This document shows positions 22,057 through 22,504 of a stretch of DNA of 32,000 nucleotides, one piece after another. Source of the DNA: Chitinophaga niastensis (lineage in GTDB: Bacteria; Bacteroidota; Bacteroidia; Chitinophagales; Chitinophagaceae); NCBI RefSeq assembly GCF_003014755.1, contig NZ_PYAW01000005.1:306320-338319 (forward strand), written 5' to 3'. The translations under genes and the position numbers were made by a program. The notes under the pieces were generated by a model, which worked only from the letters and a program-made list of their open reading frames with translations, ran no database searches and was not told the DNA's origin. The first letter of the stretch is position 1. Each line of letters begins with the position of its first letter.

Positions 22057-22504
22057 GTCTTTCACAGGATTAGACTGATTATGCTGATTACCCTGATTTT
22101 TTTTTGATTTTTGAAAGATTTTAAAAGATTAACGCGGAGAGTGTCTGAACTGTGATTTATATGATTAGTATGATTATCCTGATTAGGGGAGATCTCAGCG
22201 GATATTGTCTGAACCAGGATTTTTAGGATTTAAAAGATTACCCTGATGGGTGCCGAAGATTTAAGCGGAGATATTTGCGTAAATATTTTCCAAATAAAAC
22301 AACATAACACCCATCAGGGTAATCTTTTAAATCCTAAAAATCCTGGTTCAGACAATATCCGCTGAGATCTCCCCTAATCAGGATAATCATACTAATCATA
22401 TAAATCACAGTTCAGACACTCTCCGCGTTAATCTTTTAAAATCTTTCAAAAATCAAAAAAAAAATCAGGGTAATCATCATAATCAGCCTAATCCTGGGAA
22501 AGAC
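22057..22504 (-). repeat. 448-nt modular near-perfect palindrome (about 196-nt arms, 55-nt asymmetric centre); family copy 3
   Basis: Arm 22057-22252 pairs with 22308-22504. I derived the reverse complement by hand: the inner 147 nt of each arm (22106-22252) are perfectly complementary. The outer part has 3 substitutions and a T9 versus T10 difference. The centre is the inverted homologue of the copy-1 centre. The right end touches the TAG stop of the 22504..23451 gene. Confidence 0.92.

Follow-up and report, generated by a model that had tools for sequence, protein, structure and literature searches.

Palindromes of 9-nucleotide-phased GATT words in Chitinophaga niastensis share their arms with the cassette of a GxxExxY gene

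In the genome of the soil bacterium Chitinophaga niastensis, the spacer between a csp gene and a convergent hydrolase-like open reading frame (ORF) is filled by a 448-nucleotide (nt) palindrome, the arms of which carry the word GATT over and over, mostly in a 9-nt register. This palindrome is the third of four related copies in the window, the whole 32,000-nt stretch that we analyzed (contig NZ_PYAW01000005.1, positions 306,320 to 338,319), and it raises the question of what such an element is and what keeps its words in register. The answer that we favor, with a probability of roughly 55%, is that the approximately 230 gene-less palindromes of this genome are dependants of a cassette encoding a GxxExxY nuclease, and that the phased GATT words are the conserved skeleton of their arms. 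Below, G000 is the C. niastensis genome, other G numbers are genomes of its relatives, and C and L stand for contig and locus.

The original prediction, made from the letters of the window, had described the left arm of copy 3 (22057-22504) as an array of 14 GATT words, and our recount agrees to the nucleotide. The words start at 22068, 22077, 22086, 22095, 22106, 22117, 22127, 22154, 22163, 22172, 22181, 22218, 22227 and 22236 and are followed by GATG at 22245; the spacings are 9, 9, 9, 11, 11, 10, 27, 9, 9, 9, 37, 9 and 9 nt, and the modules GCGGAGAGTGTCTGAACTGT and GGGGAGATCTCAGCGGATATTGTCTGAACCAG are indeed present in the 27- and 37-nt gaps. The same grammar is found in copy 1 (GATT at 3741, 3750, 3759, 3805, 3814 and 3823; GATG at 3768 and 3832), and the words of copy 2 (12021, 12030, 12039 and 12048) and copy 4 (25814, 25823, 25832 and 25841) stand where they had been placed. 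Compared with 2000 dinucleotide-preserving shuffles of the 196-nt arm of copy 3, the 14 GATT words contrast with 4.7 +/- 1.7 (maximum 12), and the eight spacings of exactly 9 nt with 0.10 (maximum 2). Throughout the 7.33-Mb assembly (43% GC), same-strand GATT pairs occur 2068 times at a spacing of 9, 1312 times at 18 and 748 times at 27, over a background near 300; none of six control tetramers has a 9-nt peak, and all that they show is the 3-nt ripple that coding sequence usually gives. Matches to GATT-N5-GATT-N5-GATT-N5-GATK number 44 to 368 in 11 of 60 congeners, compared with 0 or 1 for the reversed pattern. The 9-nt phasing is therefore real, extends over the whole genome and is not accounted for by base composition. 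A genome-wide count of GATT periodicity was among the checks that the original prediction had proposed, and it had named two ways in which it could fail: the phasing might not be conserved among copies, or base composition alone might account for the words. Neither turned out to be the case.

Seeds of three phased words gathered into 261 clusters in G000, 231 of which consist of a GATT arm followed by an AATC arm and are therefore palindromes; the reverse arrangement was found once. The elements are 84 to 522 nt long (median 206, by gapped self-alignment), and their full unit reads GCGGA-N(3-16)-GTCT-N7-(GATT-N5)x3-GATK-A, with GCGGA outermost. When tokenised, an arm runs from a terminus (TT)GTCT-N7 through four GATT words at 9 nt, a T-rich run and GATT words at 10-11 nt to a linker GAT(G/T)AGCG(G/A)AGAT, after which there may be further modules of GTCTGAAC-NNN, three GATT words and GAT(G/T). 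Three sub-families, or layers, are distinguished by their termini: T (GTCTTTC-type), Mt (GTCTGAAC-TGT) and Mc (GTCTGAAC-CAG). They occur alone (T in 111 elements, Mc in 20, Mt in 11) or nested (Mt[Mc] in 26, T[Mc] in 17, T[Mt[Mc]] in 11), the Mc layer being nested in Mt or T in about 60 elements, and the nesting order T > Mt > Mc is nearly fixed, with reversed orders almost absent. Conservation over 187 anchored elements amounts to 95-98% in the GATT columns, versus 42-91% in the N5 columns. Variants of the terminus are compensated between the two arms (TTCCCAG/CTGGGAA, TTCTCCC/GGGAGAA, TACTCAG/CTGAGTA and many more), and outside the TTGTCT anchor the palindromy fades gradually, with no fixed end.

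These data also bear on how the element came to be. The resemblance that had been noticed between the outer terminus and the internal module is genuine, in that GTCTTTC-N-C-NN-GATT and GTCTGAAC-NNN-GATT are variants of one GTCT-N7-GATT terminus. The proposal that the element grew by duplication of a unit made of one module and three GATT-N5 repeats can be kept only in part: the build from repeated units stands, whereas duplication in place is not supported, the layers being distinct sub-families that each occur alone as well and nest in a nearly fixed order. At least nine other composites of about 450 nt that are built like copy 3 are dispersed in the genome, at 78-87% identity, and copy 3 was therefore copied as a unit and not grown at its own locus.

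The arms of the dispersed palindromes are also the arms of a gene cassette. G000 contains exactly one PF13366 (PDDEXK_3) gene (C1:982399-982740, minus strand), which lies outside the window in a cassette at about 982.3-983.0 kb of C1 and is flanked by GATTGTCTGAACtgtGATTattatGATTaatatGATTatcctgatgagcgaaGATT and, at its other end, by AATCaggatAATCatcttAATCataatAATCacaGTTCAGAC. The cassette arm reads GTCTGAAC-TGT-GATT-N5-GATT-N5-GATT-N5-GATG-AGCGAAGATT, and the opposite side is its mirror image, ending GTTCAGAC. This 60-nt arm has 161 near-full-length matches in G000, the best non-self ones 96-98% identical, and the T-type cassette arm of the related genome G002 has 133 matches in G000, at 86-91%. 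For G000 and G015 it is clear that the cassette arm matches the copies of its own genome best.

The product of this gene, a protein of 134 amino acids (aa), scores 132.5 bits against PF13366 (cut-off 22) and 140.5 bits against TIGR04256, the GxxExxY model (cut-off 35; E = 2.8e-41). Residues D71, E81 and K83, which form the D...ExK motif, are invariant in 58 homologues. No relative of solved structure was found for the protein by sequence; the AlphaFold model (predicted local distance difference test 83, predicted template modeling score 0.78) has the PD-(D/E)XK fold and matches nucleases of this kind at template modeling scores of about 0.45-0.5, among them Cas4 SSO0001, lambda exonuclease, RecE, tRNA-splicing endonucleases and an Hjc resolvase. 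The model supports assignment of the protein as a PD-(D/E)XK nuclease and nothing more specific. Steczkiewicz et al. 2012 (PMC3424549) give the function of the PDDEXK_3 family as 'Unknown'.

Within the genus, the gene and the elements occur together. The clade to which the G000 gene belongs, which we call clade 1 (129-138 aa, motif GFQEVIYQRAL), occupies one conserved locus behind an M13-peptidase-like gene in 12 species. In 11 of the genomes (G000, G002, G012, G015, G020, G026, G033, G037, G039, G048 and G060) it is accompanied by GTCT-N7-GATT arms, and all 11 are element-rich, with 44-602 pattern matches; in G054 the gene is present, the arms are degenerate and the elements are missing. Element-rich genomes thus make up 11 of the 12 with a clade-1 gene versus 1 of the 49 without (Fisher p = 3e-10, the kin not being independent). 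The one gene-less rich genome, G004, has 56 pattern matches and a plain terminator at the cassette locus, and its elements look decayed, with the pattern intact in both arms at 44% of its loci versus 82% in G000 and G039, a comparison with a single genome of this kind.

The link between clade and word extends to other genera and phyla. Among 20 clade-1 (GFQEVIYQ) cassettes, drawn from 12 congeneric species and from four further genera (G106, G112, G129 and G156), 18 have GATT runs on at least one side, versus none of 18 cassettes of a second GxxExxY clade, which we call GPGL. In these further genera, the flanks of the clade-1 gene are arms of GTCT(G)AAC and GATT. The GPGL gene (125 aa, MTENEISKE...GPGLFES) lies between nuoF-like and nuoG-like genes in many species (L050, L052, L054-L056, L058, L060-L062, L067, L069 and L073 in the genus; L093 and L097 in other genera), and its inverted arms are made of GCAAAG-type words, such as tgctcgcaaaggcgcaaagcagcaaaggcgcaaag ... 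ctttgctgctttgctgcttggcggctttgcgtgca, and never of GATT runs. At three loci in other phyla or orders, those of an Ignavibacteriales metagenome-assembled genome (MAG), a Deltaproteobacteria MAG and Anaerophaga thermohalophila, a GTCTGAAC-NNN-GATT hairpin stands directly 5' of the gene, and two of the three are enclosed by restriction-modification operons. Of 200 genomes sampled from the family, which represent 151 genera, 55 contain the strict four-word pattern, at low copy, and the reversed control hardly ever matches; 79 encode a clade-1-like protein, and the two features are associated (odds ratio 5.0, p = 1.6e-6). For clade 1, at least 8000 close homologues reach E <= 1e-10, and identity across phyla is 70-77%. 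The suggestion that the arms are more than a plain terminator, and possibly a protein-binding array, would fit this sequence-level link to a cognate nuclease clade.

The elements are present in some species and absent from others at orthologous sites, which we compared in a sample of one genome per species. At the junction that holds copy 1, four relatives read TAA, 11 nt, ATG, where G000 has 331 nt, and a fifth has a remnant-like spacer of 59 nt. At the csp site, G037 has an element-free 91-nt spacer with its own ordinary terminator, and G039 (csp-hydrolase spacer, L013) has a palindrome made from different words, GCATAAAGC(ACAAG). The copy 4 site holds family members in G015 and G039, with arms of each species' own sequence type, a degenerate copy in G002, and in G037 a palindrome built from other words. 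Because palindromes of different words occupy orthologous sites, we conclude that the genus harbors several families of word-periodic gene-end hairpins. At the edges of the elements no direct repeat of at least 3 nt exceeds the control at offsets 0 to 9, and the only direct-repeat signal is the palindromic AATT, which is part of the consensus.

How a cassette could sustain gene-less copies may be pictured as follows. The retention of GATT in register while the N5 bases drift suggests that these words, with the GTCT-N7 terminus, would be the recognition sites of the nuclease or of an oligomer of it. Such recognition would let gene-less hairpins be copied or kept in trans. The symmetric ragged ends and the lack of a target-site duplication suggest a hairpin or cruciform intermediate, which would be cut across the stem, as opposed to DDE-type cut-and-paste. 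Many copies probably double as two-way terminators for the host, because elements replace the whole spacer between convergent genes.

A number of observations count against the dependence of the palindromes on the cassette. A single event of shared ancestry may account for the association of gene and elements in the genus, and in the family sample the strict four-word pattern is absent from 42 of the 79 protein-positive genomes. Most copies in G000 are of the T type (111 of them T alone), the terminus of which is unlike that of the resident Mt-type cassette, and a cognate cassette of T type is found only in related species. The cassette arm of G039 is matched by the copies of other genomes as well as by its own, so that a species-specific match of arm to copies, clear in G000 and G015, does not hold as a general rule. 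We know of no transposase activity of a PD-(D/E)XK core of about 130 aa alone. In G000 there is no sign of recent movement: the nearest copies are at most 95% identical, and the median best match is 85%. A recent burst of transposition is rejected on these identities; the flanks of the nearest copies are unrelated, and the family is dispersed but old. Finally, the two arms of an element agree at variable columns at 0.81-0.91, versus 0.34-0.50 expected from column composition, and this covariation had led us to suspect ongoing homogenisation of arms. As a general rule it can be rejected, since the median identity of an arm to its own partner is 0.88 versus 0.92 to the best arm of another copy, with the own arm higher in 35%. 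The covariation therefore reflects sub-families with palindromic founders, and the palindromy needs no continuing arm-copying. Copies 3 and 1 are exceptions (own arm 0.98 and 0.96, other copies 0.87 and 0.83).

The position of the elements relative to genes could be read quite differently. When genes are called crudely, as non-overlapping ORFs of 100 aa or more (5280 genes that cover 87%), elements are found in 113 of 835 convergent, 123 of 3584 tandem and 21 of 832 divergent spacers. Their edges lie a median of 3 nt from an adjoining stop codon and 63 nt from an adjoining start, and in 71% of the convergent cases neither edge is more than 15 nt from its stop, which means that the element is the whole spacer. 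All of this is favorable to the idea that the palindromes are two-way terminators or insulators of the host that spread by ending transcription on both sides, the periodicity being a by-product of 9-bp slippage and the nuclease link secondary, as are the ordinary terminator of G037 at the csp site, the extreme stability of the hairpin, and the small GGCCTTCGGCC-type hairpins, followed by a T-rich run, that stand at one or both ends of 37 of the 231 elements (at both in 23). We nevertheless judge this idea unlikely. Slippage alone explains neither why GATT is so strongly conserved while N5 drifts nor why the same words in the same register lie beside one nuclease clade in other genera and phyla, and a hairpin of 450 nt goes far beyond the needs of termination. 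Genome-wide, the asymmetric loop favors neither orientation with respect to the flanking gene (14 versus 9, p = 0.4), and G:T mismatches on the sense strand exceed A:C only weakly (232 versus 188). A terminator function is in any case compatible with dependence on the cassette, as a secondary, exapted role. Set beside an intrinsic (Rho-independent) terminator, in which a short GC-rich stem-loop runs into a U tract, the elements give a mixed picture: 37 of them carry the small hairpin with its T-rich run, and the main hairpins are AT-rich stems of 40-200 bp without a canonical U tract. The unbiased loop and the near-parity of G:U and A:C speak equally against structured RNAs, be they stabilisers of 3' untranslated regions, RNase III substrates or small-RNA precursors, with GAUU:AAUC as recognition sites at the RNA level. 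Elements immediately past stop codons are probably transcribed as 3' ends, and the compensated terminus variants of the sub-families preserve pairing; yet the window has no Rfam match at the gathering score (microRNA precursor hairpin models appear below threshold only), and these arms also stand, as ends of DNA, on both sides of a protein gene. We hold an RNA function to be very unlikely.

The dependence could also run in reverse. The palindromes would then be spread by the host, for instance through template switching at hairpins during replication or through recombination, and the GxxExxY gene would land in or next to them without mobilising them, as a selfish or helper gene for which the hairpins are a homing site or landing pad. 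In line with this, the gene in distant phyla is beside a complete small hairpin and not between two arms, its place in the center of a palindrome is one where nested layers also sit, it stays at one locus within the genus, and recent copies are absent. Homing would, however, have to be very inefficient for the gene to be in only 1 of about 231 palindromes, and a general host process would not be expected to leave elements in so few (1 of 49) of the gene-less genomes of the genus; the pairing of clade and word implies recognition in either direction. This alternative seems doubtful to us. Much less probable still, to the point of being nearly negligible, is that these are ordinary miniature inverted-repeat transposable elements (MITEs) of a DDE-transposase insertion sequence, or repetitive extragenic palindromic (REP) sequences or their hairpin doublets (REPINs) served by a REP-associated tyrosine transposase (RAYT). 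The elements are dispersed, intergenic and palindromic, their termini are conserved and their insertions differ between species, all of which such elements would share. A target-site duplication is absent at any offset or length, and no longer, autonomous copy was found between paired termini in G000: pairs are 99-445 nt apart, three longer ones are mismatched, unrelated solo ends, and the only gene-bearing copy encodes the PD-(D/E)XK nuclease. Both counts speak against a classical MITE. The Y1 transposase model PF01797 has no match in G000, G002, G004, G012, G015, G020, G026, G033, G037, G039 or G060, and among element-rich genomes it matches in G048 only, on which ground a RAYT was rejected as the partner. 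REP units measure 20-40 bp, one end being tagged GTAG or CGTC (PMC3733652), whereas the termini here are (TT)GTCT-N7-GATT followed by 9-nt-phased words.

REPIN-RAYT systems, in which REP doublets that form hairpins accompany a single-copy RAYT (PMC3116915; bioRxiv 10.1101/2021.07.10.451892, 10.1101/2022.05.22.493013), are nevertheless the closest analogy that we can offer. Here too there are hundreds of short, gene-less, hairpin-forming intergenic repeats and one single-copy cognate gene, flanked by the repeat and at a conserved locus across the species of the clade, a place taken by the GxxExxY gene instead of a RAYT. Repeats are many where the gene is present and look decayed in the single gene-less rich genome. 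In contrast, the gene encodes a predicted PD-(D/E)XK nuclease of about 130 aa and not a HUH Y1 transposase of the IS200/IS605 type, the arms are 40-200-nt arrays of 4-nt words with a GTCT-N7 terminus in place of 20-40-nt REPs, the elements nest in layers, and mobilisation would be a matter of inference. The elements may therefore resemble REPIN-RAYT systems in their working; they are not members, because the Y1 transposase, the defining test, is absent.

Other known repeats resemble the family in part. The bacterial modular repeats Correia (CREE) of Neisseria, ERIC, and BOX and RUP of pneumococcus are likewise dispersed at gene ends as non-coding units that are palindromic or modular, and BOX also combines modules in variable number. 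Unlike MITEs and BOX-type repeats, the elements described here have neither a target-site duplication nor a DDE-transposase parent, they are palindromic over their whole length and not just in short terminal repeats, and their word periodicity is strict. The Foldback (FB) transposons of Drosophila share long inverted arms of tandem short sub-repeats, variable arm length and many non-coding copies; they are eukaryotic, of kilobase scale and associated with a different transposase, and the likeness is one of architecture only. Integron attC sites (RYYYAAC/GTTRRRY) were dropped as candidates: their words do not match those of the elements, which are dispersed instead of lying in cassette arrays. 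The original prediction did not recognise a named repeat family, and nor do we: no Rfam model matched, and the literature that we searched on Chitinophaga palindromic repeats and Bacteroidetes MITEs contained no description of this one. A link of GxxExxY or PDDEXK_3 proteins to flanking hairpin repeats was also not found in the literature searched.

More tentatively, it is possible that these observations belong to a second, independent kind of long-lived nuclease-plus-hairpin replicator in bacteria, REPIN-RAYT-like and founded on a minimal PD-(D/E)XK nuclease with clade-specific words. Every clade of the nuclease would have its own short word and fixed register to read, for clade 1 GATT at 9-nt intervals with GTCT-N7 and for its sisters GCAAAG-type or other words, and hairpins copied through a cruciform or hairpin intermediate would settle as spacers and terminators at gene ends. 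If this were so, the breadth of the clade-1 homologues would imply a widespread, undescribed class of mobile or semi-domesticated elements with a simple protein-DNA word code. The link by itself, if true, would bring a second enzyme class into the REPIN-RAYT idea of vertically inherited repeat populations, would give a very common uncharacterised protein family a testable partner in the form of 9-nt-register word arrays with GTCT-N7, would explain the hundreds of long hairpins that fill post-stop spacers in Chitinophaga and relatives, and would provide a simple system in which to study how a small nuclease reads periodic DNA. In addition, the elements break assemblies and mark gene ends, and recognising them improves annotation; in the fragmented relatives G060 and G012, contigs end at or beside an element site.

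Within the window, copy 3 (22057-22504) is a three-layer palindrome, T[Mt[Mc]], that reaches from the csp gene's own terminator to the convergent hydrolase-like ORF (22504-23451, minus strand), with the stop codon of which its last base overlaps. On the forward strand, the left arm of the T layer (22057-22133, mirrored at about 22427-22504) consists of the terminus GTCTTTCACAG, four GATT words at 9 nt (22068-22095), the T-rich run and GATT words at spacings of 11, 11 and 10 nt. The left arm of the Mt layer (22134-22197, forward; mirror 22363-22426) reads GCGGAGAGT-GTCTGAAC-TGT, the words at 22154, 22163, 22172 and 22181, and the linker AGGGGAGATCTCA, and is of the same sequence type as the arms around the only GxxExxY gene of G000. 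The Mc layer (22198-22252, forward; mirror 22308-22362) reads GCGGATATT-GTCTGAAC-CAG, the words at 22218, 22227 and 22236, and GATG at 22245. Between the arms lies an asymmetric loop of 55 nt (22253-22307). The inner arms (22097-22252/22308-22463, 156 nt) are 100% complementary and the outer arms (22057-22126/22435-22504) 83%. When folded as a single strand of DNA, copy 3 forms one hairpin with a minimum free energy of -223 kcal/mol (z = -50 versus shuffles).

The other three copies are simpler. Copy 1 (3715-4017) is a two-layer Mt[Mc] palindrome (arms 3715-3839/3892-4016, 97% complementary) that shares the loop type of copy 3 in the opposite orientation and is inserted between two tandem genes, with a stop at 3703 and a start at 4035. 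Copy 2 (12005-12180) is a single T layer (arms 12005-12066/12119-12180, 92% complementary) between susD-like and GH2-like genes, flanked by small GC tetraloop hairpins of the GGCCTTCGGCC type (11988-12002 and 12182-12196). Copy 4 (25802-25985), also a single T layer, begins 2 nt past the TAA of a helicase-like gene. Because copies 3 and 4 are each palindromic with the same terminus at both ends, the hydrolase-helicase segment (22481-25826) is bracketed by identical inverted termini, as is anything that happens to lie between two adjacent elements. The csp gene keeps a conventional terminator (gcactggctatgccagagcgg, then T9; 21978-22056) directly before copy 3, the left edge of which therefore abuts a T run and not a stop codon; several further copies begin right behind a terminator T run.

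Some further arrangements were seen in relatives and in G000. Between the csp terminator and the hydrolase, where G000 has its 448-nt palindrome, G004, G002 and G015 (L002, L003 and L014) have an insert of about 1.3 kb with an uncharacterised ORF of about 239 aa (MAKQTGIVLFTGKLENQVGYRRNG...), of which G060 (L012) retains a truncated remnant. The other-word palindromes behind the helicase-like gene in G037 and G039 (L025 and L022) are of the form GCTTTTAGC/GCTAAAAGC. G054, a genome without the palindromic family, has a tandem array of about 10 units of the 9-mer GATTCACGC/GATTAATGC on one strand only (C2:214561-214645). In G037 (C656, L072), an expanded microsatellite of about 200 nt, GAGATGGA/GATGGAGATGGA, lies between the left GATT arm and the clade-1 gene. 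In G000 itself, Mc-layer elements at C1:1310300-1310640, 1415700-1416110 and 1522950-1523390 have loops of about 100 nt that contain a terminator-like hairpin (GAGAAAGTCCGG...CCGGACTTTCTC, then a T run). This loop hairpin resembles the one between left arm and gene in the cassettes of relatives, and these elements may be deletion derivatives of a cassette.

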